Assembly (NCBI GenBank): GCA_903850545.1
Contig: CAINLW010000037.1
Coordinates: 14,813 to 38,812, forward strand
Direction: 5' to 3'
DNA length: 24,000 nt
Source of the DNA: an uncultured bacterium
Lineage (GTDB): Bacteria > Patescibacteriota > Minisyncoccia > Phycocordibacterales > GWA1-40-21
The notes beneath the pieces are model-generated. The model was not told the DNA's origin, ran no database searches, and saw only the letters and a list, made by a program, of their open reading frames with translations. The first letter of the stretch is position 1. Each line of letters begins with the position of its first letter. Of the stretch, positions 4,785 through 23,905 are shown piece after piece. The translations under genes and the position numbers were made by a program.

Positions 4785-5071
4785 CCGGATTCGAACCGGT
4801 GACCTCTCCCGTGCATATTCCCCAATATTTTCATATCGGCATGGACTATATCTTCGCCATTGTTCGTCCGTTAAGACGAATTTAGGTGCTCCGGTATCTA
4901 GTCTCTACGGCGCCCCCTTAAAATAAATTAAGAGGTTCCCTCGGTATTCGCATATCTTTATAAAAAAGACTTAGCCTTCACCGATATCCCAGAGAGTTTC
5001 AAACTACCTTTCGGCAGCAAGCTGCACGTTCGTCTACAGGGGAGCGCTCTAACCAGCTGAGCTACAACCGC
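4776..5071 (-). tRNA. tRNA-Asp (anticodon GUC) interrupted by a group I intron in the anticodon loop
   Basis: 5' exon 5071->5036 reads GCGGTTG TA GCTC AGCTGGTTA GAGC G CTCCC CTGT. 3' exon 4813->4776 reads CAC GGGAG AGGTC ACCGG TTCGAAT CCGGC CAGCCGC G. Joined, they give a 74-nt cloverleaf with loop CUGUCAC, a 5-nt variable loop and G73. CCA is not encoded. Confidence 0.88.
4814..5035 (-). ncRNA. Group I intron (tRNA-type, IC3-like), 222 nt, no ORF
   Basis: The 5' exon ends in U and the intron ends in G (AATATG). The minus strand contains GTAGAGACTAGA...CACCTAA, matching the J6/7-P7-P3 core I remember from the Azoarcus tRNA-Ile intron. P7 is GACTA/TAGTC, P3 is GGTG/CACC and P8 is TTCGTC-ttaacg-GACGAA. 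GAAA tetraloop hairpins are GCC-GAAA-GGT and CCGATAT-GAAA-ATATTGG. Confidence 0.85.
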
Positions 5072-5739
5072 AATTTTATAAATTTCTCAAAAACATCCTT
5101 CTTTCTTTTGAGAAACAAACCTCCTGATTTAAGGTTATCTACATTATACATAAAATTATATAATTTCAAAGAGCTAATTACACTATATGTTAATCTGAAG
5201 TAATCACCCTGTCCTTTTCGAATAGAACCTTTCATTCCTTTTATTCTTTCTAATCTGTCATTTAAAGCTTCTAAAAAAACAAAGGAACAAGATGTAAAAA
5301 CGCACGAAATGGTATAAGATTTAATTAATCTATTTTTATGGTTAAGACCGACCCAAACATTCCCATCACCATCAAAATACCCGCGAACAAAATCAGAAAA
5401 ATACTTTTCCGGTATATTTGGAACTGCTAAACTTTTTGTTTTATTCTTATCGAAACCGAGTTTTCTCAAATCATCACACATTTCAAAGCTCCCTATCTGT
5501 AAACGATAAAGATTTTTATTATTACCCATACCAATTTTTTCACCTATTTTATGTTCAGATTCAATGCAATCTTTAATTTTACAAAGTATCTCCTTGTCAG
5601 TAATTTCTATGCACCAAAAATTTGCACCTCGTTTGTTTAATGTAATATAACCGTCAGCAGCAAAAAAACCCAAGATATAAGCCATTTGTGTCGTCCATTT
5701 TTTGAAAAAATCTTTATTTATTTTTTTAAATATCGGCAA
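5062..5739 (-). CDS. Double-motif LAGLIDADG homing endonuclease, free-standing between two tRNA genes (start uncertain)
   Basis: Two LAGLIDADG motifs (YILGFFAADGYI and FVRGYFDGDGNV). The ORF-track start (5871) lies inside the upstream tRNA, so it is not credible. Candidate starts are TTG at 5739 or ATG at 5685. The stop TAG (5062-5064) is positions 8-10 of tRNA-Asp. Confidence 0.85.
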   Translation of the reverse strand: MPIFKKINKDFFKKWTTQMAYILGFFAADGYITLNKRGANFWCIEITDKEILCKIKDCIESEHKIGEKIGMGNNKNLYRLQIGSFEMCDDLRKLGFDKNKTKSLAVPNIPEKYFSDFVRGYFDGDGNVWVGLNHKNRLIKSYTISCVFTSCSFVFLEALNDRLERIKGMKGSIRKGQGDYFRLTYSVISSLKLYNFMYNVDNLKSGGLFLKRKKDVFEKFIKLRL

Positions 5740-5814
5740 GATTATATTGTAGCACGTGACAGTGTTATATACTAACCAAAATATATAAAAATTTAGATGA
5801 AAAACAAATTTTTG

Positions 5815-5885
5815 TGTCGATGAATGGAATCGGACCATTGTCTGAGGCTTATGAGTCCCCCGTTCTACCATTGAACTACACCGAC
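5815..5885 (-). tRNA. tRNA with CAU anticodon (elongator Met or Ile2), 71 nt
   Basis: GTCGGTG TA GTTC AATGGTA GAAC G GGGGA CTCATAA GCCTC AGAC AATGG TCCGATT CCATT CATCGAC A. The acceptor has one G-U pair. Positions 31-39 are an A/G mismatch. The T loop TCCGATT is non-canonical. Confidence 0.7.
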
Positions 5886-6067: not shown

Positions 6068-6141
6068 TGGTTGCGGGGGCCCGAATTGCACGGACGTCTC
6101 TAGGTTATGAGCCTAGCGAATTACTGCTACTCTACCCCGCT
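6068..6141 (-). tRNA. Initiator-type tRNA-fMet (CAU), CCA encoded
   Basis: AGCGGGG TA GAGT AGCAGTA ATTC G CTAGG CTCATAA CCTAG AGAC GTCCG TGCAATT CGGGC CCCCGCA A CCA. The acceptor GCGGGG/CCCCGCAACCA with a mismatched 1:72 pair mirrors E. coli tRNA-fMet. G30-C40 and G31-C39 are present. The D loop lacks GG and the T loop is TGCAATT. Confidence 0.75.
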
Positions 6142-8399: not shown

Positions 8400-8453
8400 T
8401 TTTGCATTAAAATTTTCGTTGACATTCGTAACTATTCGTATAATTTTCGTATT
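8400..8453 (-). repeat. TACGAA-repeat intergenic element (reference copy)
   Basis: The minus strand reads AAAATACGAAAATTATACGAATAGTTACGAATGTCAACGAAAATTTTAATGCAAAAATT followed by the gatA ATG. Confidence 0.6.
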
Positions 8454-8738
8454 TTACAATATTTTTTCAACTTTTAAATAATCATCCTGAGAATTTGGCA
8501 TGTTAGCAACAATATTTTTTGTATTTACTCCAGTTTCTGTTGGATTGTTATCCTCCCTAACCACATTTCTTAACTCCCCAGCAACTTTGTTTTCTACCAT
8601 TGAAGACGTAATATCTTTTAGTTGTGCAACGTATTCCAAAATTGAATCCGCTTCTTTTGGCAGTTTTTCTTCTTCCTCTTTTGTTAGAGTAATTCTAGCA
8701 AGTTTGGCTAATTTTTTAATATCATCTGTTCCCAACAT
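8454..8738 (-). CDS. gatC: Glutamyl/aspartyl-tRNA amidotransferase subunit C
   Basis: 94 aa. DIKKLAKLARITLTKEEEEKL...VREDN is typical GatC. It is adjacent to gatA. Confidence 0.85.
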   Translation of the reverse strand: MLGTDDIKKLAKLARITLTKEEEEKLPKEADSILEYVAQLKDITSSMVENKVAGELRNVVREDNNPTETGVNTKNIVANMPNSQDDYLKVEKIL

Positions 8739-8800: not shown

Positions 8801-8833
8801 AGAAAACAAAAAGGGTCGCGTTTCCGTGACCCT
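8801..8833 (-). terminator. Intrinsic terminator closing the hammerhead operon
   Basis: The minus strand reads AGGGTCACGGAAACGCGACCCT followed by TTTTTGTTTTCT. It is preceded by a second hairpin CCTGT-tataaggaag-ACAGG (8836-8854), just past the stop of the 8868..9371 gene. Confidence 0.75.
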
Positions 8834-8867: not shown

Positions 8868-9371
8868 TTACATCGCGATTGGTTTCGCGGTGTAGCTGGG
8901 AGCAAGACCAGCCGACCCCACTTCGCTCAGACCCGCCTCGGTGATTTCATATGCACCCTGACACTTATTAAGCTGGTCTAGATCCGAAAAAACAACTCTT
9001 AACTTCTTGATGTCTTCCCTGAAATGAGCCTGGTCGGGACGCTGTCTGACTGGTTTGCCCGGAGAACAACAACCTCTACTTTCGCGACCAATCATCTTGC
9101 CGGCTCGCATCTCGATAAGATCGAGGTGTTTCACCAAGCCGTCTTTTGCCATTTTGGGAAGTGCTGCCCGGACTCTCTGTTCCAGTTCAGACGCAATCCT
9201 CTGAGGTGTAATTCTCCCTTTATCAAACCCGTACCTTTCACACTCCCTCAGCATGAGGCCTTTGATCATCTTAATCGCCTCTTTCGACTGAGCTATTATG
9301 TTAGCAACTACCGGAACCAAAACCGGCCTTCCGGGATACTCAGCCAACGCCTTCAATATTAATTTTCTCAT
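8868..9371 (-). CDS. Hypothetical protein (167 aa), last cassette of the hammerhead operon
   Basis: The start is reassigned to ATG at 9371 (MRKLILKALAEYPG...), 8 nt after GAGAGGGAG. The longer ORF-track version (to 9470) reads through the hammerhead and leader. G+C is much higher than in flanking genes. A possible winged-helix-like segment (LPKMAKDGLVKHL) is only a guess. Confidence 0.7.
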   Translation of the reverse strand: MRKLILKALAEYPGRPVLVPVVANIIAQSKEAIKMIKGLMLRECERYGFDKGRITPQRIASELEQRVRAALPKMAKDGLVKHLDLIEMRAGKMIGRESRGCCSPGKPVRQRPDQAHFREDIKKLRVVFSDLDQLNKCQGAYEITEAGLSEVGSAGLAPSYTAKPIAM

Positions 9372-9446
9372 ATGTTTTCTCCCTCTCAACCTGTTCTTGC
9401 AAATCAGGAATATTTTACGAGAAGCAAATAAATCAAAGAACATTTT
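9372..9446 (-). promoter_or_regulatory. Conserved post-ribozyme leader module, copy A
   Basis: Minus strand: AAAAATGTTCTTTGATTTATTTGCTTCTCGTAAAATATTCCTGATTTGCAAGAACAGGTTGAGAGGGAGAAAACAT. It shares ATGTTCTTTGA, CGTAAA and TCCTGAYTYGMAAGARCAGGT with copies B-E. GTTCTT can pair with AAGAAC. Confidence 0.6.
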
Positions 9447-9496
9447 TCTGTTTCGTCCTTTTGGACTCATCAGTCGAAACTACACTTCGAGACAGA
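9447..9496 (-). ncRNA. Hammerhead ribozyme, type III (HH-A)
   Basis: Minus strand: TCTGTC|TCGAA-GTGTAGT-TTCGA CTGATGA GTCC-AAAA-GGAC GAA ACAGA. All core nucleotides are present (CUGAUGA, GAA, A15.1, GUC site). Predicted cleavage is between 9491 and 9490. A 5-bp hairpin GGGAA/TTCCC (9497-9517) abuts it upstream. Confidence 0.85.
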
Positions 9497-9530
9497 GGGA
9501 ATTTTATGAGATTTCCCAAACTCTTTACTA

Positions 9531-9908
9531 TCACTTTACCCACGGACACTTAACCAGCGAAGTCTTCGACGTTGACCAATAAGGCTTCGGTGCCTCCATC
9601 AATCCTAGCTTTACAAAACGCCGGTGAAGATCATCCATCAAAGACATTAGGTGTCCCCTGACAACTGTTCCATTCGTCTTGTACTCTCGCGCTATATTCA
9701 CTATTGTCATAGGGGTGGGATTGTCCCCAAAAGACTTGTAGGCTAAGTGAAATTTCAACAACTTTGCATACAACCCGTAGCCAAACTTGGTGCTTCCAGG
9801 AAGTCTTTTACCTTTTTTCTCTAAGGCACAATACTCCATATATATTACAAGCACAGCTTCCTTAACATCGGCGGAATTTACCACTTCGAACATGTTAATG
9901 TTGCTCAT
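9531..9908 (-). CDS. Hypothetical protein (125 aa), possible HTH
   Basis: The ATG at 9908 is preceded by AAGGGAAG. The segment MTIVNIAREYKTNGTVVRGHL looks helix-turn-helix-like (a guess). It lies between HH-B and HH-A. Confidence 0.65.
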   Translation of the reverse strand: MSNINMFEVVNSADVKEAVLVIYMEYCALEKKGKRLPGSTKFGYGLYAKLLKFHLAYKSFGDNPTPMTIVNIAREYKTNGTVVRGHLMSLMDDLHRRFVKLGLMEAPKPYWSTSKTSLVKCPWVK

Positions 9909-9979
9909 ATAATATCTTCCCTTTTTCTCACCTGCTCTTTCAAGTCAGGAATTATGAGAATTAAAATCAAAGAACATTT
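9909..9979 (-). promoter_or_regulatory. Conserved post-ribozyme leader module, copy B
   Basis: Minus strand: AAAAATGTTCTTTGATTTTAATTCTCATAATTCCTGACTTGAAAGAGCAGGTGAGAAAAAGGGAAGATATTAT. Confidence 0.6.
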
Positions 9980-10031
9980 TTCTGTTTCGTCCTTTTGGAC
10001 TCGTCAGTCGGAAACATATTCCGAGACAGAA
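9980..10031 (-). ncRNA. Hammerhead ribozyme, type III (HH-B)
   Basis: Minus strand: TTCTGTC|TCGGA-ATATGTT-TCCGA CTGACGA GTCC-AAAA-GGAC GAA ACAGAA. Stem I shows a compensatory change relative to HH-A. Predicted cleavage is between 10025 and 10024. The upstream hairpin is AGAGAA/TTCTCT (10031-10051). Confidence 0.85.
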
Positions 10032-10187
10032 GAGAAATTTACGTATTCTCTGTTCGCTTATGCGACGGTGAGTTTCAAACTCACAATCTAGGATTAACCT
10101 TCATCCTTGATTAGTAAGGTGTGTTAAAATTCATCTTTATAACAAGTCTTAACACAAAAAACCCCATTTTCTTAACTAGACAAACTC

Positions 10188-10607
10188 CTAGGTGATTATT
10201 TTGACCTCTCCCCTTTTGTGATCAAAAATCCCCACGGTGCCATTTTTGAAATTGACACCAGTCAAATGCTCCAACACCGGCTGATGAGAAACAACAATTA
10301 TTGAGACGCTGCATCTTTCTATCTCTCTCATTGTCTCCCAATGGTCTGAATTATCACAATCAAGATGATCGCGTGTTTCAAGAGACACTTTGCACTTTTT
10401 GTCTGACTTGATTAACACCTTTTTAATAATATCAGCTGTTTCCACCGCCCTCTGAAGAGGAGAGGTTATAATAAGTACAGTCCCTTTTATTATTTTGGCG
10501 ATATGCTCACCAGCCATTGTCGCCTGTGCCTTTCCATTATCATTCAGACCATTACCACGATCTTCACCGTGGCGAACAAGAAATACCTGCTTCAATACTT
10601 TAAGCAT
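10188..10607 (-). CDS. Histidine phosphatase superfamily protein, SixA-like (139 aa)
   Basis: The start is reassigned to ATG at 10607 after AGAGGGA. It carries the VFLVRHGE (RHG catalytic motif), SPLQRAVETA and VVSHQP motifs in the order and spacing of SixA-type phosphohistidine phosphatases. Confidence 0.75.
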   Translation of the reverse strand: MLKVLKQVFLVRHGEDRGNGLNDNGKAQATMAGEHIAKIIKGTVLIITSPLQRAVETADIIKKVLIKSDKKCKVSLETRDHLDCDNSDHWETMREIERCSVSIIVVSHQPVLEHLTGVNFKNGTVGIFDHKRGEVKIIT

Positions 10608-10674
10608 AAAGTTTCCCTCTTTCTTCAACCTGTTCTTTCGAATCAGGATTTACAAAGACCAAAATTTTAAAGAA
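10608..10674 (-). promoter_or_regulatory. Conserved post-ribozyme leader module, copy C
   Basis: Minus strand: ATGTTCTTTAAAATTTTGGTCTTTGTAAATCCTGATTCGAAAGAACAGGTTGAAGAAAGAGGGAAACTTT. Confidence 0.6.
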
Positions 10675-10725
10675 CATCTCTGTTTCGCTCTTTTGAGCTC
10701 GTCAGTCGAAGCTACACTTCGAGAC
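10675..10725 (-). ncRNA. Hammerhead ribozyme, type III (HH-C)
   Basis: Minus strand: ACTGTC|TCGAA-GTGTAGC-TTCGA CTGACGA GCTC-AAAA-GAGC GAA ACAGAG. Stem II covaries (GCTC/GAGC versus GTCC/GGAC). Predicted cleavage is between 10720 and 10719. The upstream hairpin is GGGAAT/ATTCCC (10726-10747). Confidence 0.85.
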
Positions 10726-10789
10726 AGTGGGAATTTTTATAGAGATTCCCGGAACTCTTTAGGATTTTTTGTTTTTACGCGGTAATCCA

Positions 10790-11093
10790 AACCGCATCAG
10801 ATACAGGTTCTATTAGGATAGGAGCAGTTTTGTTCGCTCACCTATACGCTTTAGTTTCCTTTACCTGCAAAATATAGTGTGATGGTCAGCTATGCCAAGT
10901 TTCTGACCCTGGAGTTTAACCGACAACTGTTCCTTGCTCTGCAGAGCTAAGGATGGCGCATTCGGCACAAGACTTCTATAGAGTCCTATGCGCACCAGTC
11001 ATCGGCCTCCCTTCATCTAACTCCCTCCATCCGAGGCCAGTTTGATGTTTGCACTTTTTAAAGTGCTGGTGCTTTAGAGATCACACGTCCCTG
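10790..11093 (-). ncRNA. Candidate structured non-coding RNA cassette between HH-D and HH-C
   Basis: No ORF of 60 aa or more exists on either strand across 10786-11048, and the minus-strand frame that I translated by hand carries 8 stops in about 105 codons. G+C is comparable to the neighbouring coding cassettes. There are many local hairpins: GGTGC..GCACC, GCACTT-taaa-AAGTGC, GGCCTC..GAGGCC, GCGCAT..ATGCGC enclosing AGGACT/AGTCTT, CCTTaGCTC-tgca-GAGCaAGG, GGTCAG..CTGACC and GCGGT..ACCGC. Confidence 0.35.
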
Positions 11094-11096
11094 CAC

Positions 11097-11171
11097 CATT
11101 TTCTTCAACCTGCTCTCTCAAGTCAGGATTTTTTACGAAGAAAATTATTAGAATTTATTCAAAGATCATTT
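11097..11171 (-). promoter_or_regulatory. Conserved post-ribozyme leader module, copy D (no strong SD, followed only by a 13-codon ORF)
   Basis: Minus strand: AAAATGATCTTTGAATAAATTCTAATAATTTTCTTCGTAAAAAATCCTGACTTGAGAGAGCAGGTTGAAGAAGAAA, followed by ATGGTGCAGGGACGTGTGATCTCTAAAGCACCAGCACTTTAA. Confidence 0.5.
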
Positions 11172-11234
11172 TCTAGTTTCGTCTTGCCACCTTGTGATGG
11201 AAGACTCATCAGTCCGACTCAGTCGGAGACTAAA
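11172..11234 (-). ncRNA. Hammerhead ribozyme, type III, extended stem II (HH-D)
   Basis: Minus strand: TTTAGTC|TCCGA-CTGAG-TCGGA CTGATGA GTCTT-CCATCACAAGGTGGC-AAGAC GAA ACTAGA. Stems I, II and III all differ in sequence from HH-A/B/C but keep their pairing. Predicted cleavage is between 11228 and 11227. The upstream hairpin is CGAGGAT/ATCCTCG (11235-11255). Confidence 0.8.
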
Positions 11235-11240
11235 CGAGGA

Positions 11241-11303
11241 TTAATTAGATCCTCGGGCGCTGTAGGGTTGTCCCCGACAGCGTACTTGGTTGTACATTGT
11301 CAT
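11241..11303 (-). CDS. Micro-ORF, 20 aa: MTMYNQVRCRGQPYSARGSN
   Basis: The ATG at 11303 lies 7 nt after GGAG. It is a paralog of the 18-aa ORF upstream. Of 8 substitutions across the first 13 codons, 5 are synonymous third-position changes. Confidence 0.6.
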   Translation of the reverse strand: MTMYNQVRCRGQPYSARGSN

Positions 11304-11362
11304 ACTATCTCCATTCTCTACCTGTTCTTTCGAATCAGGGTTTACGAGAGTTCAAAGAACGT
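11304..11362 (-). promoter_or_regulatory. Leader module, copy E (the only copy without a hammerhead in front)
   Basis: Minus strand: GACGTTCTTTGAACTCTCGTAAACCCTGATTCGAAAGAACAGGTAGAGAATGGAGATAGT. Its GTTCTTTGA box supplies the stop codon of the upstream micro-ORF. Confidence 0.55.
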
Positions 11363-11408
11363 CGTCGCCAGGTTGCCCCCGGCAACGCACTTCGTCGTAC
11401 ATTGCCAT
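11352..11408 (-). CDS. Micro-ORF, 18 aa: MAMYDEVRCRGQPGDDVL
   Basis: The ATG at 11408 lies 4 nt after AAAGGAGG, the best SD in the window. It is the first reading frame of the island operon and is paralogous to 11241..11303. Confidence 0.6.
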   Translation of the reverse strand: MAMYDEVRCRGQPGDDVL

Positions 11409-11510
11409 AAGGCCTCCTTTTCTATCTGATAACAGAATATCATTAATTGCAATAATGTGTTGTAAAATATGACTATTTGTAAAAGATAATTAAGAAAACG
11501 CAAAATAGGC

Positions 11511-11552: not shown

Positions 11553-12266
11553 ATGGAATATTCAAATGCATTACAACGTTTAGGACTATCGCTTAAAGAG
11601 TCCCAAATATACGAGACCTTATTAGATAAAGGTTCTTTAAGCATGATAAAACTATCCCAGATAACTGGAATTAACAGACCTGCACTTTATATTTTAATTC
11701 CGAAAATGATAAATAAAGGGTTAGTTATTGAGACAAAAAAAGGTAAGAGGATTGAGTATATTGCTTCCTCCCCTAATAAACTTGAGCCCTTAGTCAAAAA
11801 CGCCCAACAAAGTCTTGAAAATATAGTCACCAATTTAAATACTGAATTTTCTAAAAAACAGCTTGTTCCAAAAATTGAAACTTACTATGGTAAAGATGGA
11901 ATAATTAAGGTGCTTATGGATATTGTCACAACTCTAAATAAAGGGGATACATATTATCGTTACAGTATTAAAAAAATATCTGACAAATTTCCTTTGCCAA
12001 AAGAATATTATAGATTAAGAGATGAAAAACAAATTGAACGTTTAGTTATAGCTAGCTCCGAAGTAGCAAAAAGAAAAAAACCAGACTTAAATGAAACAAT
12101 TAAAATATTAAAAGGTAGCTATGATGGTTTTAATGCGACAAAAAACATTTATGGAAATAAAATTGCCTTTACAGATTATGAAAATGAGGTAGCTTTTATA
12201 ATCTACAACGAAAAAATGGCTAAACTAGAAAAAGAAATCTTTCTGAATTTGTACAAAACACTCTAA
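11553..12266 (+). CDS. TrmB-family-like transcriptional regulator (N-terminal winged HTH)
   Basis: LQRLGLSLKESQIYETLLDKGSLSMIKLSQITGINRPALYILIPKMINKGLV matches the TrmB-type HTH pattern. It is the only credible plus-strand gene in the window. Confidence 0.7.
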   Translation: MEYSNALQRLGLSLKESQIYETLLDKGSLSMIKLSQITGINRPALYILIPKMINKGLVIETKKGKRIEYIASSPNKLEPLVKNAQQSLENIVTNLNTEFSKKQLVPKIETYYGKDGIIKVLMDIVTTLNKGDTYYRYSIKKISDKFPLPKEYYRLRDEKQIERLVIASSEVAKRKKPDLNETIKILKGSYDGFNATKNIYGNKIAFTDYENEVAFIIYNEKMAKLEKEIFLNLYKTL

Positions 12267-17732: not shown

Positions 17733-17774
17733 ATTTTCGTTGACATTCGTTAAAATTCGTATAATTTTTGTATT
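17733..17774 (-). repeat. TACGAA-repeat intergenic element
   Basis: Minus strand: AAAATACAAAAATTATACGAATTTTAACGAATGTCAACGAAAATAAAAAATT. Confidence 0.6.
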
Positions 17775-18404
17775 TTATTCAAAGTTCTCAGAAAAATTAT
17801 ATATGAAATTTTGAATATCTACATGTTGCAGACCTTGCGGAGCTGTCCAAGAAACACGAACATTTACAACAGCTTCATCTAGATTTCCTGCTGGATTTTT
17901 CTTTATGTTTATTTTTCTTATGAATTTTGAATCCGGTTTATTTTGAACATAATCATACTTTTCAAAACTTCCACTAGTAGATGAAATTTTCAGTGTTCCA
18001 GGATTATCTGAACCACCTGCTTTTATGTAAACACTACTCCATACGGATGCCGTAGTATCTATAGTGCAAAATTTTGGGCTTGGACTTACTGAGCCAAAAT
18101 CACAGGTGTCTGTATTAGAGTCACAAACACAAGGTGTTAATGGATCCCCCAACCAATCTGTTACACCATTCACCTTTCCTCTTAAAGCAATCTGATCACG
18201 AATATTTTTTACTGCCTCAAGACCATCTTGCGCCAAAAAAAGTGCAATCATTTGATCTTTTGATAAAGTGGCGGTGGATAAACCTTTCTGTGCTAAGGTC
18301 ATCGGACTTGCAATCGCAATCATAAGAATTGAAATAGCAACAAGAGCTTCCACTAATGTGAACCCATCATTTTTACTATTCTGTTTTATAATTTTCGTTT
18401 CCAT
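17775..18404 (-). CDS. Type IV minor pilin / pseudopilin
   Basis: The leader METKIIKQNSKNDG is followed by FTLVEALVAISILMIAI, the prepilin cleavage/methylation motif with Glu at +5. Confidence 0.8.
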   Translation of the reverse strand: METKIIKQNSKNDGFTLVEALVAISILMIAIASPMTLAQKGLSTATLSKDQMIALFLAQDGLEAVKNIRDQIALRGKVNGVTDWLGDPLTPCVCDSNTDTCDFGSVSPSPKFCTIDTTASVWSSVYIKAGGSDNPGTLKISSTSGSFEKYDYVQNKPDSKFIRKINIKKNPAGNLDEAVVNVRVSWTAPQGLQHVDIQNFIYNFSENFE

Positions 18405-18431
18405 TCGTTTTATTCGTACAATTTTCGTATC
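18385..18431 (-). repeat. TACGAA-repeat element overlapping the start codon and first codons of the pseudopilin gene
   Basis: Minus strand: GGATACGAAAATTGTACGAATAAAACGAATGGAAACGAAAATTATAAAAC. The embedded ATG is the gene start at 18404. Confidence 0.6.
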
Positions 18432-20785: not shown

Positions 20786-21337
20786 TTAAGGCATCACATC
20801 GTAAATTTTATCATTACTACTAGCATCAACTGGGGGATGATTGTATAAGGGACCACATTCAAATACATCATCTGATAAATTTGTAGAATTAAAAATTCTT
20901 CTTGAGTTTATATGTTCATTATTTCCCTCAAAAGTTGTCCAAAGCTGGTATGAAACACAATTATTTGAGCCGATTGAACCACCCGTCGTCATAGGCATTT
21001 TTGTCATAGGAAAATAATTATATGCTGTGTTTGGGGGTAAATCTGCTGGTATTTCAGGTAAAAACTTTATTACTGGCGATACATCCTTTTTTCCATCAAC
21101 TAGTTCCGACAATTGTACTGGATACACTCCATATTTTTGGAAAAATTGTTCAAGAGCAAGCTGTATTACGCTCAGATCTCCAACTCTTTTTTGATCTCGA
21201 CTATTTGCTTTTGAGGTATCAAAAGATGAGTAAATTACAGCAGTCAATATAGCCATAATAGAAATAACCACCATTATTTCTACTAGTGTATATCCTAACT
21301 TATATTGATGGTTCTTTTGTTTAATTTTCGTTGCCAT
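20786..21337 (-). CDS. Type IV pilin-like protein
   Basis: The leader MATKIKQKNHQYKLG is followed by YTLVEIMVVISIMAILTAV. Confidence 0.8.
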   Translation of the reverse strand: MATKIKQKNHQYKLGYTLVEIMVVISIMAILTAVIYSSFDTSKANSRDQKRVGDLSVIQLALEQFFQKYGVYPVQLSELVDGKKDVSPVIKFLPEIPADLPPNTAYNYFPMTKMPMTTGGSIGSNNCVSYQLWTTFEGNNEHINSRRIFNSTNLSDDVFECGPLYNHPPVDASSNDKIYDVMP

Positions 21338-21367
21338 TCGTAATTATTCGTATAATTTTCGTATATT
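21322..21367 (-). repeat. TACGAA-repeat element overlapping the start codon of the pilin-like gene
   Basis: Minus strand: ATATACGAAAATTATACGAATAATTACGAATGGCAACGAAAATTAAAC. The embedded ATG is the gene start at 21337. Confidence 0.6.
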
Positions 21368-21436
21368 ACAATTATACCTTTTTTATACAAAAAACAAAAC
21401 AATAAAACTGCAATATTGACCTAGAACAAAAAATTT

Positions 21437-23196: not shown

Positions 23197-23571
23197 AATT
23201 TTTAATTTTTATCGATAAGATATTAAAATCTTAATAAACGTTAATAAATTGCTTTGGATCTTGTTTAAAATCTAACCGTAATATTATAAACTTCAATAAT
23301 TACTTATCTGCTCAAACATCTAAATTTTGGCTGCAAATAATTCACTCCTCCTCAACATATCTCGATATGCTTCGTCAGACTTCATTATTTTCGCTCAAAA
23401 TTTAGGTGTTTGTGCTAGATATTAGATTTCTCACAAGCTCCTAATATTTTTTTTGGCCATCGTTTACTTGCTCAAGGTAAAGTACTCCCAAATATAAATA
23501 CTTTTAAGCTTATGGGACTATTATACAACTTTTTAGATAAAAATGGTAAATAGAGGGGGTGTGGATAACTT

Positions 23572-23613
23572 CTTTAAACTGGCGTGGCGGTAATCCGCCA
23601 CGCCAGTTTAAAG
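23572..23613. repeat. Perfect 19-bp-stem palindrome
   Basis: ctttaaactggcgtggcgg-taat-ccgccacgccagtttaaag lies just downstream of the GIY-YIG ORF. There is no U tract on either strand. Confidence 0.7.
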
Positions 23614-23620
23614 AACCCCG

Positions 23621-23905
23621 TCAAATTGGCTTTTCATTTGACTGGGGTGTATCCATTAAATAAGCTTTAAGTCTATTTTTTATAAACAACTTTCCATAAT
23701 ATCTTTTTAAATACATCTCTCTGTGTCGTGCATCATTATTATTTTTACACGCCTCATAATAAACAAGCTCTAACGGTCGCCTGTCCTTTGTTGATTCTAC
23801 CTCCCCCTTCTTATGTTCCTCAAATCTTAACTTTAAATCTTTTGTACATCCAGTGTAAAATTCGCCATCTTTTTTTGATTTTAAAATGTAGGTGTAATAG
23901 AACAT
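23621..23905 (-). CDS. GIY-YIG (URI-domain) nuclease family protein, stand-alone 94 aa
   Basis: FYYTYILKSKKDGEFYTGCTKDLKLRFEEHKKG carries the GIY...YIG-type motifs (YTYIL / FYTGCT), followed by R...E...N. Confidence 0.8.
   Translation of the reverse strand: MFYYTYILKSKKDGEFYTGCTKDLKLRFEEHKKGEVESTKDRRPLELVYYEACKNNNDARHREMYLKRYYGKLFIKNRLKAYLMDTPQSNEKPI

Follow-up and report, generated by a model that had tools for sequence, protein, structure and literature searches.

We describe an operon of an uncultured bacterium of the Patescibacteria that contains four predicted hammerhead ribozymes in one transcription unit. The operon lies on the minus strand of a 24,000-nucleotide (nt) stretch of DNA (GenBank assembly GCA_903850545.1, contig CAINLW010000037.1, positions 14,813 to 38,812; henceforth referred to as the window, to which coordinates refer unless another locus is named), and each hammerhead belongs to a composite module of a small hairpin, the ribozyme, a conserved leader and a Shine-Dalgarno (SD) sequence. 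A preliminary description of the window, made from its letters alone, had placed such modules at 9372-11362, and they are indeed present there, all on the minus strand; it had also noticed a fifth leader copy at 11304-11362 with no ribozyme in front, which we confirm. The elements of the module exist, their structures covary, the hammerhead cores are intact, one transcription unit holds them all, and the layout in which hairpin, hammerhead and gene start follow one another is general among related ribozymes. On balance, we favour the reading that the operon is transcribed as one RNA that the hammerheads divide into pieces of one gene, each of which would carry a protective hairpin at its 3' end and an insulating leader at its 5' end; the cleavage itself and the roles of hairpin and leader are what we infer from the sequence.

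Hammerheads, abutting hairpins and nested leaders

The hammerheads were detected in a permissive Rfam search with family RF00008 (curated gathering score 48.5 bits; E-values refer to a search of 2.9 kb). Hammerheads A (9445-9498; 46.5 bits, E 2e-8), B (9979-10032; 48.3 bits, E 7e-9), C (10677-10730; 38.0 bits, E 6e-6) and D (11171-11235; 37.9 bits, E 6e-6, with an extended stem II) all lie on the minus strand and are all of type III, with cleavage predicted 3' of C9491, C10025, C10723 and C11228, respectively. All four have a canonical core (CUGAYGAG...CGAAAC, with a GUC cleavage triplet), and A, B and C directly precede single genes; the Rfam search revealed no further hammerhead and no other ribozyme class in the window. 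Related loci were reached through homologues of the neighbouring proteins, and the four hammerheads were aligned by hand with those of the relatives L029, L025 and L036 (seven copies from four genomes, padded with N to keep columns). Over the hairpin and hammerhead together, 99.3% of cells were paired, compared with 34-58% when partners were slid, compensatory changes were present in 17 of the 23 pairs and none of 500 shuffles reached the observed score. Stems I, II and III were paired in 100, 96 and 100% of cells and showed compensatory change in 4 of 6, 3 of 4 and 4 of 6 pairs, respectively, and covariation thereby supports the type III topology, in which stems I and II are closed by loops and stem III, only 4-6 base pairs (bp) long in this module, is open. 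Among the relatives, the hammerheads of L033 (614-670) and L034 (512-568) have two extra nucleotides (CA) between stem I and CUGAUGA and score 31.4 bits, compared with 41.5 bits in L036 (482-536), and in that of L029 (93-174) the conserved 10.1-11.1 pair is a U-U mismatch; these three are probably weakened.

A hairpin stands directly 5' of stem III in every copy. Its stem is GGGAA/UUCCC in A (9497-9517), AGAGAA/UUCUCU in B (10031-10051), GGGAAU/AUUCCC in C (10729-10750) and CGAGGAU/AUCCUCG in D (11235-11255; 7 bp, directly abutting stem III), all on the minus strand, which bears out the earlier observation that the stem sequence differs from copy to copy. The gap between the end of the hairpin and stem III is 0-1 nt in each of the seven copies, and the hairpin alone shows 100% pairing with compensatory change in 6 of its 7 pairs. 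Since it ends so close to a short stem III, the hairpin probably stacks coaxially on it. The same position supports the suggestion in the preliminary description that the hairpin would become the end of the upstream cleavage product.

Ahead of some of these hairpins is a further box, UAAAGAGUU, found on the minus strand at 9519-9527 (before hairpin A) and 10753-10761 (before hairpin C). In the general form UAAA(AA)GAGU(U) it stands directly before hairpins A and C and the second hammerhead of L025 (~45-58 in L025), and it also precedes a hairpin in the 3' untranslated region (UTR) of L030 (~600-612), where there is no hammerhead. The box is complementary to box 1 of the leader (see below), which allows either a clamp on the ribozyme or a contact between the 5' and 3' UTRs inside a released mRNA. 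We rejected a general clamp helix, UAAAGAG/UUCUUUG, around hairpin and ribozyme: it can be drawn only for A, C and, in a shifted register, B, whereas D, L029, L036 and the first hammerhead of L025 lack it.

Stem III also bears on a very improbable reading, namely that the released segments circularise, the hammerhead being rebuilt across the ends and then closed by self-ligation or by ligation of the RtcB type, as in retrozymes and viroid-like RNAs. Because stem III is common to A, B and C, a segment's 3' tail (…UCUGUC>p) can pair with its own 5' ribozyme body. The stem is UCUGU/ACAGA in A and B and CUGU/ACAG in C, with the same type in both L025 hammerheads, whereas stems I and II have diverged with compensatory changes; moreover, tandem hammerheads yield circular RNAs in eukaryotic retrozymes. 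Recent common descent would, however, also leave stem III identical, the stem III sequences of D and L036 differ, no ligase gene is evident at the locus, and circular or spliced products of clustered bacterial hammerheads were sought by Perreault et al. and not found (PMC3088659).

The leader that follows the hammerheads is ~70 nt long and contains a 19-nt core, CCTGAYYYGNRAGRRCAGG, which occurs five times in the window against 0.00 expected (100 shuffles). A repeat finder recovered the identical set of five copies, and no further copy was present in the window with two mismatches allowed. Each leader, read 5' to 3' on the minus strand, has a U-rich box (box 1), then a nested hairpin (P1/P2) and, in all copies but D, the SD. 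Leader A (9372-9444) has box 1 at 9433-9441, P1/P2 at 9382-9424 and the SD GAGGGAG; leader B (9909-9978) has them at 9967-9975 and 9925-9960, with the SD AAGGGAAG; and leader C (10608-10676) has box 1 as GTTCTTTAA at 10667-10675, P1/P2 at 10622-10658 and the SD AGAGGGA. In leader D (11099-11170; box 1 at 11159-11167, P1/P2 at 11099-11144) there is no usable SD or gene, and in leader E (11304-11362), which has no hammerhead, box 1 is GTTCTTTGA at 11352-11360, P1/P2 spans 11316-11350 and the SD is GGAG. The preliminary description was right about the start codons and the purine-rich SD, and likewise about the boxes ATGTTCTTTGA and (C)GTAAA, although copy D deviates from its consensus, with GAGAGAGC and, as its variant of box 1, GATCTTTGA.

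Six leader copies, which are paralogous (A-E and that of L029), were compared. They share an inner stem P2, CCUG-A-YUY-GNRA-GAR-CAGG, inside an outer stem P1 in which a pyrimidine run pairs with a purine run leading into the SD, and the internal loop between P1 and P2 holds an invariant UAA. The P2 loop is GAAA, GCAA or GAGA, and the stem contains one U-A to C-G compensatory pair, one C-G/U-G pair and, in three copies, G-U wobbles; these loop variants and wobbles indicate that the leader signal operates at the RNA level. In the structural alignment 89.9% of cells were paired, compared with 45-51% for slid partners, with none of 500 shuffles as high, and RNAalifold applied to an unedited MAFFT alignment returned the same nested P1/P2 with 5 compensatory pairs. 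The 3' strand of P1/P2 ends 0-6 nt ahead of the SD or overlaps it in A, B, C, E and L029. The preliminary description had treated the CCTG...CAGG pairing as an alternative or pseudoknot, but it is instead the core of this covarying GNRA hairpin, which is part of the minimum-energy structure of all six copies. Several other accounts of the leader were discarded. P2 as a DNA palindrome or operator was rejected, since three copies contain G-U wobbles, an A is bulged on one side only and the loop is of the GNRA type; AUGUUCUUUGA as the start of a mini open reading frame (ORF) fails because copy E has ACG and L029 has AAG in place of its AUG, and frames and lengths are inconsistent; and, with five copies in one operon and one orientation, the leader does not behave as a dispersed repeat of the repetitive extragenic palindrome (REP) or miniature inverted-repeat transposable element (MITE) kind.

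A second helix, GTTCTT(T) with (A)AAGAAC, had been proposed for the leader. The complementarity is real (95% of cells, compared with 40-69% when slid), but no compensatory change backs the helix, which lies +0.1 to +8.2 kcal/mol above the best fold. This bears on whether the leader is a conformational switch, in which box 1 would pair with AAAGAAC or UAAAGAG, or act as a U-rich pause or termination tract, and would thereby control ribozyme folding, product release, read-through or SD exposure. Apart from the complementarity, such a switch would fit the nearly isoenergetic folds of copy A (-35.4 and -35.5 kcal/mol), the terminator-like score of the first short ORF hairpin together with box 1, and the UAAAGAG(UU) box ahead of hairpins A and C, the second L025 hammerhead and the L030 3' UTR hairpin. 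We nevertheless give it only a slight chance: neither pairing of box 1 has a compensatory change, variation on the AAAGAAC side is fully accounted for by P2 covariation, the helix costs 3.8-8.2 kcal/mol in five of the six copies, the U-to-A change in box 1 of copy D is uncompensated, and the UAAAGAG box is missing from D, L029, the first L025 hammerhead and L036.

All genes and modules of the operon lie on the minus strand between ~11466 and 8803 and form one promoter-to-terminator unit, which exceeds the span 9372-11362 in both directions. At its upstream end a promoter scan identified a promoter-like site, TTTACA-16-AATGAT (11439-11466, minus strand), and at its downstream end an intrinsic terminator, GGGUCACG-GAAA-CGCGACCC followed by UUUUUGUUUU, can be read directly at 8803-8832 (minus strand). 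The terminator scan found no canonical G+C-rich stem with a U-run inside the operon; its terminator-like matches there were the hairpin of short ORF 1 with box 1 as tail, and hairpin D.

Comparison with known hammerhead systems and the proposed processing

Viral contigs of IMG/VR were scanned with the core of hammerheads A-C, CTGAYGAGYYCAAAAGRRCGAAA, which returned at least 120 loci (L042-L161); this subtype (CUGAYGAG-YYC-AAAA-GRR-CGAAA) is abundant in viral contigs. Among the matches listed, a perfect hairpin stands 0-2 nt before stem III in 72 of 95 non-redundant type III hammerheads (76%; 54 of them at 0 nt), hairpins of at least 5 bp precede stem III in 73% of these 95 compared with 13% at random positions, and an ORF of at least 50 codons lies downstream in 93 of 105, with a median of 28 nt between CGAAA and the start codon. 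Hence hairpin, hammerhead and gene start together are a standard design of the subtype, as in the operon described here, and the layout, which in phages occurs with unrelated junction sequences, is independent of repeated junctions. That an abutting hairpin and a start codon ~28 nt downstream form a general rule of the subtype is a statement we did not find in the literature examined. Phage leaders differ from those of the window in being short, A-rich and unstructured, and phage hairpins are usually longer and richer in G+C; none of the 120 viral loci among the matches listed has box 1 adjoining the ribozyme or a CCUG...GNRA...CAGG hairpin. Many listed phage hammerheads of this subtype share a near-identical upstream hairpin, GUGUCUUCAAAGACAC, directly before stem III, and several phage contigs contain two junctions of the GUGUCUUCAAAGACAC type ~0.5-1.1 kb apart.

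The operon also resembles, in design, the synthetic insulator RiboJ, originally described by Lou et al. in 2012. RiboJ consists of the hammerhead from tobacco ringspot virus satellite RNA (sTRSV) and a 23-nt hairpin before the ribosome-binding site (PMC8794103). The element order of hammerhead, hairpin (here P1/P2) and ribosome-binding site or SD is common to both, and in RiboJ cleavage strips away the upstream context and the hairpin fixes the structure just before the ribosome-binding site. RiboJ is, however, engineered from a plant satellite-RNA ribozyme and lacks the upstream 3'-end hairpin, box 1 and the GNRA and bulged-A signature, and we take the likeness to be one of design, not of descent.

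Clusters of hammerheads that flank genes in prophage-like regions were described by Perreault et al. in 2011, who showed that the polycistronic RNA is cleaved in vitro and in E. coli and proposed that such clusters divide polycistronic RNA into single-gene mRNAs (PMC3088659). As in those clusters, several hammerheads of one orientation lie between genes of a single transcript, here four on the minus strand between the promoter-like site and the terminator, and the flanked genes vary among genomes. Unlike those clusters, the operon is on a Patescibacteria chromosome, all four of its ribozymes are of type III and they are set in a larger module with a pre-hairpin box, hairpin, box 1 and GNRA leader; the 2011 paper mentions neither an abutting upstream hairpin nor a conserved downstream leader (PMC3088659). 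Nor did we detect phage genes or a prophage setting: a PHROGs search assigned none of the locus proteins a phage function, the neighbours are gatCA, ligA, pilins and glycosyltransferases, and module A had no match in a blastn search of phage and plasmid records.

In the processing that we propose, a single transcript would run from the promoter beside the TrmB-like gene to the terminator before gatC, and the four hammerheads would cut it into one-gene pieces, each cut falling near the 5' edge of the ribozyme because the hammerheads are of type III. Given the hammerhead topology, the upstream piece would end with the hairpin, then 5-7 nt and a 2',3'-cyclic phosphate, and the hairpin should block 3' exonucleases while also favouring formation of the very short stem III. 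The piece downstream would start with a 5'-OH on a base already paired in stem I, followed by the ribozyme body, the U-rich box (GUUCUUUGA), the nested hairpin and the SD at the foot of that hairpin. Ribozyme body and leader would shield the new 5' end, which matters because a ribozyme-made 5'-OH can otherwise feed decay by RNase J1. The leader would in this way equip each released cistron with one and the same folded, exonuclease-resistant 5' end and present ribosomes with an identical entry context, irrespective of what lies upstream, a uniformity that is the purpose of the synthetic RiboJ design.

Several observations weigh against this proposal. Each of the four hammerheads scores below the RF00008 gathering threshold (37.9-48.3 bits), and since they fall just under it, a default Rfam search of the window lists only two tRNAs; the shortfall is due to a short stem II loop and a short stem III, not to defects of the core. 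In stability the leader folds do not exceed shuffled sequence (z from +0.18 to -1.25), the outer stem has low complexity, such that its pyrimidine and purine runs would pair ~75% by chance, and the covariation counts overstate the number of independent events because the copies are paralogues. In the thermodynamic model, SD accessibility is modest (0.33-0.48) and much the same for the cleaved RNA as for RNA with 150 or 300 nt more upstream sequence, which would be compatible with insulation and equally with no effect. Phage versions of the layout typically use an unstructured leader of 28 nt, and the long leader is therefore unnecessary for the basic job. Box 1 also occurs in 5' UTRs of relatives that have neither a hammerhead nor a GNRA hairpin, which the proposal leaves unexplained. 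Lastly, a 5'-OH end can be a signal for decay rather than a form of protection: the glmS ribozyme of B. subtilis, which, like those proposed here, is self-cleaving and lies in a bacterial 5' UTR, yields a coding fragment with a 5'-OH that is degraded by RNase J1 (PMC10810187). Cleavage by glmS depends on a ligand and leads to decay, whereas the ribozymes here have no ligand domain, and the burial of the new 5' end in stem I and further structure suggests stabilisation, not destruction.

The purpose of most bacterial and phage hammerheads is open, and a 2019 review states that 'additional work is needed' (PMC6765202). The operon is a compact natural test bed, in that it offers four ribozyme junctions of fixed anatomy, and because this anatomy comprises a 3' hairpin and a folded leader, the idea of processing for differential stability and translation can be tested by mutation. 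If the rule of an abutting hairpin and a start codon ~28 nt downstream stands, hammerheads of this subtype would be punctuation marks at gene boundaries, and nature would have reached the RiboJ design before synthetic biology did. Searches of the literature returned no report of hammerheads in Patescibacteria, and this appears to be the first such locus noted there.

Related loci and turnover of the payload genes

The operon is flanked upstream by a divergent gene for a TrmB-like regulator with a winged helix-turn-helix domain (11553-12266, plus strand; domain search), from which the promoter-like site is directed away. The intergenic region that bears this site is common to the operon and the regulator gene, contains repeated TTTTACA boxes and, by reading, is kept in relatives. 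Downstream of the terminator are gatC and then gatA. Between them, the payload genes, all on the minus strand, are as follows. Gene C (10188-10607) encodes a SixA-like histidine phosphatase of 139 amino acids (aa; domain search), and a spacer of 137 nt separates it from hairpin B. Gene B (9531-9908) encodes 125 aa of no known family, with 2 homologues among 5.8 billion proteins, and gene A (8868-9371) encodes 167 aa, also of no known family, with 4 homologues in the protein search and 5 matches in a profile search of 1.84 billion representative proteins. AlphaFold models of proteins A and B had a predicted local distance difference test (pLDDT) score of 52.8 and 51.8, respectively, too poor for a fold search.

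In relatives, the TrmB-like gene stays beside a variable operon at 49-78% identity; its named homologues are from Minisyncoccia and Nomurabacteria, both Patescibacteria. Contigs of the same species were identical to the window. In L029 (TrmB-like protein 78% identical) one short ORF of the same family as those of the window is followed by a 7-bp hairpin, a D-type hammerhead, box 1, an identical P2 hairpin, the SD GGGAGGAGG and the start of a 182-aa gene. Behind copy D of the window there is only a 13-codon ORF and then ~330 nt with no credible ORF, and since the orthologous module of L029 precedes GGGAGGAGG and a 182-aa ORF, copy D has lost its gene, as well as its SD, in line with the preliminary description. 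L025 (76%) has a different short ORF, then hairpin, hammerhead and box 1 with no GNRA hairpin, then ~290 nt with no ORF and a second hairpin and hammerhead cut by the contig end. L036 and L033 (59%) have two small genes with ACGTTCTTT ahead of each and a Csx3-like gene whose 5' UTR contains box 1; a hairpin and a hammerhead come after that gene. L024 (gene A homologue, 68%) opens with GTAGAGAACGGAGAAAATATATG, the 3' foot and SD of an E-like leader, before the gene A homologue. No hammerhead was found at the equivalent locus of L030, L031 and L041. Metagenome contigs of this species and its relatives often end within or beside the repeated modules.

Gene tables of the related contigs ERZ1426824, ERZ1426829 and ERZ1426834 (ENA) were also compared. 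The payloads ahead of the gene A homologue are 74, 110 and 166 aa in P0010 and 69, 84 and 166 aa in P0006, and a gene A homologue is the last gene ahead of gatC in three related genomes as well. For the TrmB-gatC locus as a whole, the payload series is none, 139, 125 and 167 aa in the window, 182, 251, 92 and 266 aa in P0008, and 65 aa, 81 aa and Csx3-like in L036. The payloads thus vary between related genomes at the same locus, as had been supposed, and in L029 the leader precedes another gene. No copy of the module turned up at other loci in the collections scanned: leader patterns gave 3, 7 and 5 matches in IMG/VR, the GTDB representatives and the JGI metagenomes, respectively, all in coding sequence and with no hammerhead nearby, and their number is at chance level, though exact patterns would miss diverged leaders. 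The long structured leader was found in this lineage only and is a lineage-specific addition.

The variable payloads had been read in the preliminary description as a sign that the junctions are recombination sites of an integron-like cassette array with no visible integrase. Like attC arrays, the operon has promoterless genes of one orientation, repeated structured junctions, a single promoter and a gene content that varies, here between relatives at the same TrmB-gatC locus. The modules are mosaics, with hairpin A resembling that of C and ribozyme A that of B, and P2 is identical in C, E and L029 and 95% alike in B and D, although ribozyme D is orthologous to that of L029. In addition, the operon (9000-11400) is a G+C-rich island (0.38-0.46, compared with 0.29-0.35 in the flanking chromosome), and direct repeats of 60-150 nt are natural substrates of homologous recombination. 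We nevertheless consider this reading decidedly improbable. No recombinase domain was present in any scanned ORF of at least 94 aa of the window, and the gene tables of the relatives list no integrase, transposase or other recombinase. Inspection revealed no attC cores (GUUCUUU is not GTTRRRY, and AAAGAAC is not RYYYAAC), so the absence of an integrase and of attC-type cores, remarked on before, stands. The palindromes of the junction are hairpins of 5-7 bp and a ribozyme, not a long imperfect attC palindrome, and what is conserved is RNA structure (wobble pairs, the bulge and the GNRA loop). Furthermore, the phage layout is widespread with unrelated junction sequences, the module was not found around other genes in the three collections scanned, and the turnover is accounted for just as well by ordinary gain and loss of genes. 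The layout is an elaboration of the hammerhead arrangement common in phages, not a new kind of gene-cassette system.

Box 1, with the consensus (R)GUUCUUU(G/A)A, predates the GNRA leader and has a wider distribution. Among the relatives, it occurs at ~1253-1261, 1508-1516 and 860-869 of L036, 5820-5829 of L041 and ~1105-1113 of L030, in one case ~20 nt after the promoter of a Csx3-like gene, and in the window it is confined to the operon, apart from chance matches to GTTCTTTAA. A Csx3-like gene (Pfam Cas_csx3, E 5e-8) is present at the equivalent locus in three relatives (L030 648-956, L036 ~600-800 and L041 5348-5698 on the minus strand); it is G+C-rich, with its own promoter and a long hairpin in its 5' UTR, and in L036 the hammerhead lies directly downstream of it.

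The retention of box 1 in 5' UTRs that lack a hammerhead is one reason to consider the leader as an operator, with the GNRA hairpin and its bulged A, the UAAA loop and/or box 1 bound by a protein or small RNA. The binder could be one of the winged-helix-like proteins encoded at the locus, the cistrons would be co-regulated after transcription and the hammerheads would serve only to separate operator-bearing mRNAs. None of the six copies departs from CCUGA...CAGGU or UAA, whereas the spacers have come to vary in both length and sequence, and a hairpin with a generic stabilising task would not need so much conservation; the stability of the leader folds is unremarkable; phage junctions work with no such leader; and gene A is kept last in related loci while other payloads change. 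We think this reading unlikely, though worth keeping in view: domain searches detected an RNA-binding domain in none of the proteins of the locus, the models of proteins A and B (pLDDT ~52) are of too low a quality to be of use, and copy D keeps the hairpin though its gene is gone. A bolder combination, to which we attach a small chance, would make the junction an RNA punctuation cassette with four separately exchangeable sub-elements (pre-hairpin box with hairpin, hammerhead, box 1 and GNRA leader), the common leader and box 1 being bound by a factor encoded at the locus, as one post-transcriptional regulon and the repeats driving payload exchange. The hypervariable TrmB-gatC locus would then hold a ribozyme-delimited array, parallel to an integron in function but defined by RNA, and the shared stem III might allow circular mRNAs.

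Short ORFs, the ORF-less stretch and other features of the window

Two short paralogous ORFs open the operon, both with a strong SD. Short ORF 1 (MAMYDEVRCRGQPGDDVL; 11352-11408, minus strand; SD AAAGGAGG), which leader E follows, ends with a UGA inside box 1 and encloses a 10-bp hairpin at 11363-11387. Short ORF 2 (MTMYNQVRCRGQPYSARGSN; 11241-11303, minus strand) carries the same embedded hairpin at 11258-11282 and overlaps hairpin D with its 3' end. The loop of the embedded hairpin is G(G/A)CAA, and over three copies, including that of L029 (~175-220), the hairpin covaries, with 3 compensatory pairs and 96.6% pairing, whereas no conservation is seen in the peptide that its 3' strand encodes. 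Together with GUUCUUUG, the first hairpin scored as terminator-like, and the hairpin of short ORF 1 with box 1 looks like an intrinsic terminator; the short ORFs with their hairpin may be a leader-peptide attenuator. A related sequence, ACGUUGCCGGCAACCUG, lies downstream of the hammerhead in L036.

Between leader D and hairpin C there is a stretch of ~350 nt (10751-11098, minus strand) that ends with UAAAGAGUU and has no credible ORF, the best being one of 44 aa with a GTG start. It contains a promoter-like site, TTGGCA-16-TATATT, at 10871-10898. L025 and L036 likewise have 290-400 nt with no ORF behind a hammerhead, and the stretch of the window resembles neither of these nor the 182-aa gene behind the D-type module in relatives; it may represent a gene that has decayed or an RNA not yet recognised.

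The other genes of the window are those of an ordinary chromosome: gatCA, ligA, pilins, a prepilin peptidase, glycosyltransferases and a P-type ATPase. An intergenic repeat of ~45 nt, AUACGAAAAUUAUACGAAUAAUUACGAAUGUCAACGAAAAUU, with four ACGAA units spaced ~10-11 nt apart, occurs in four copies on the minus strand that are 85-94% alike, one at the gatC/gatA junction (8411-8460) and three in the intergenic DNA of the pilin-gene cluster (17733-17777, 18386-18430 and 21323-21372); the copies at 21323-21372 and 18386-18430 span, or sit just inside, the called starts of pilin-like ORFs. The called start of an ORF with a LAGLIDADG domain (269 aa, 5062-5871, minus strand) overlaps a tRNA gene at 5815-5885, and a second tRNA is at 6071-6141. 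Behind the gene for a small GIY-YIG protein (94 aa) stands a long perfect hairpin, UUCUUUAAACUGGCGUGGCGG-AUUA-CCGCCACGCCAGUUUAAAGAA (~23560-23616 and 23621-23905, minus strand).

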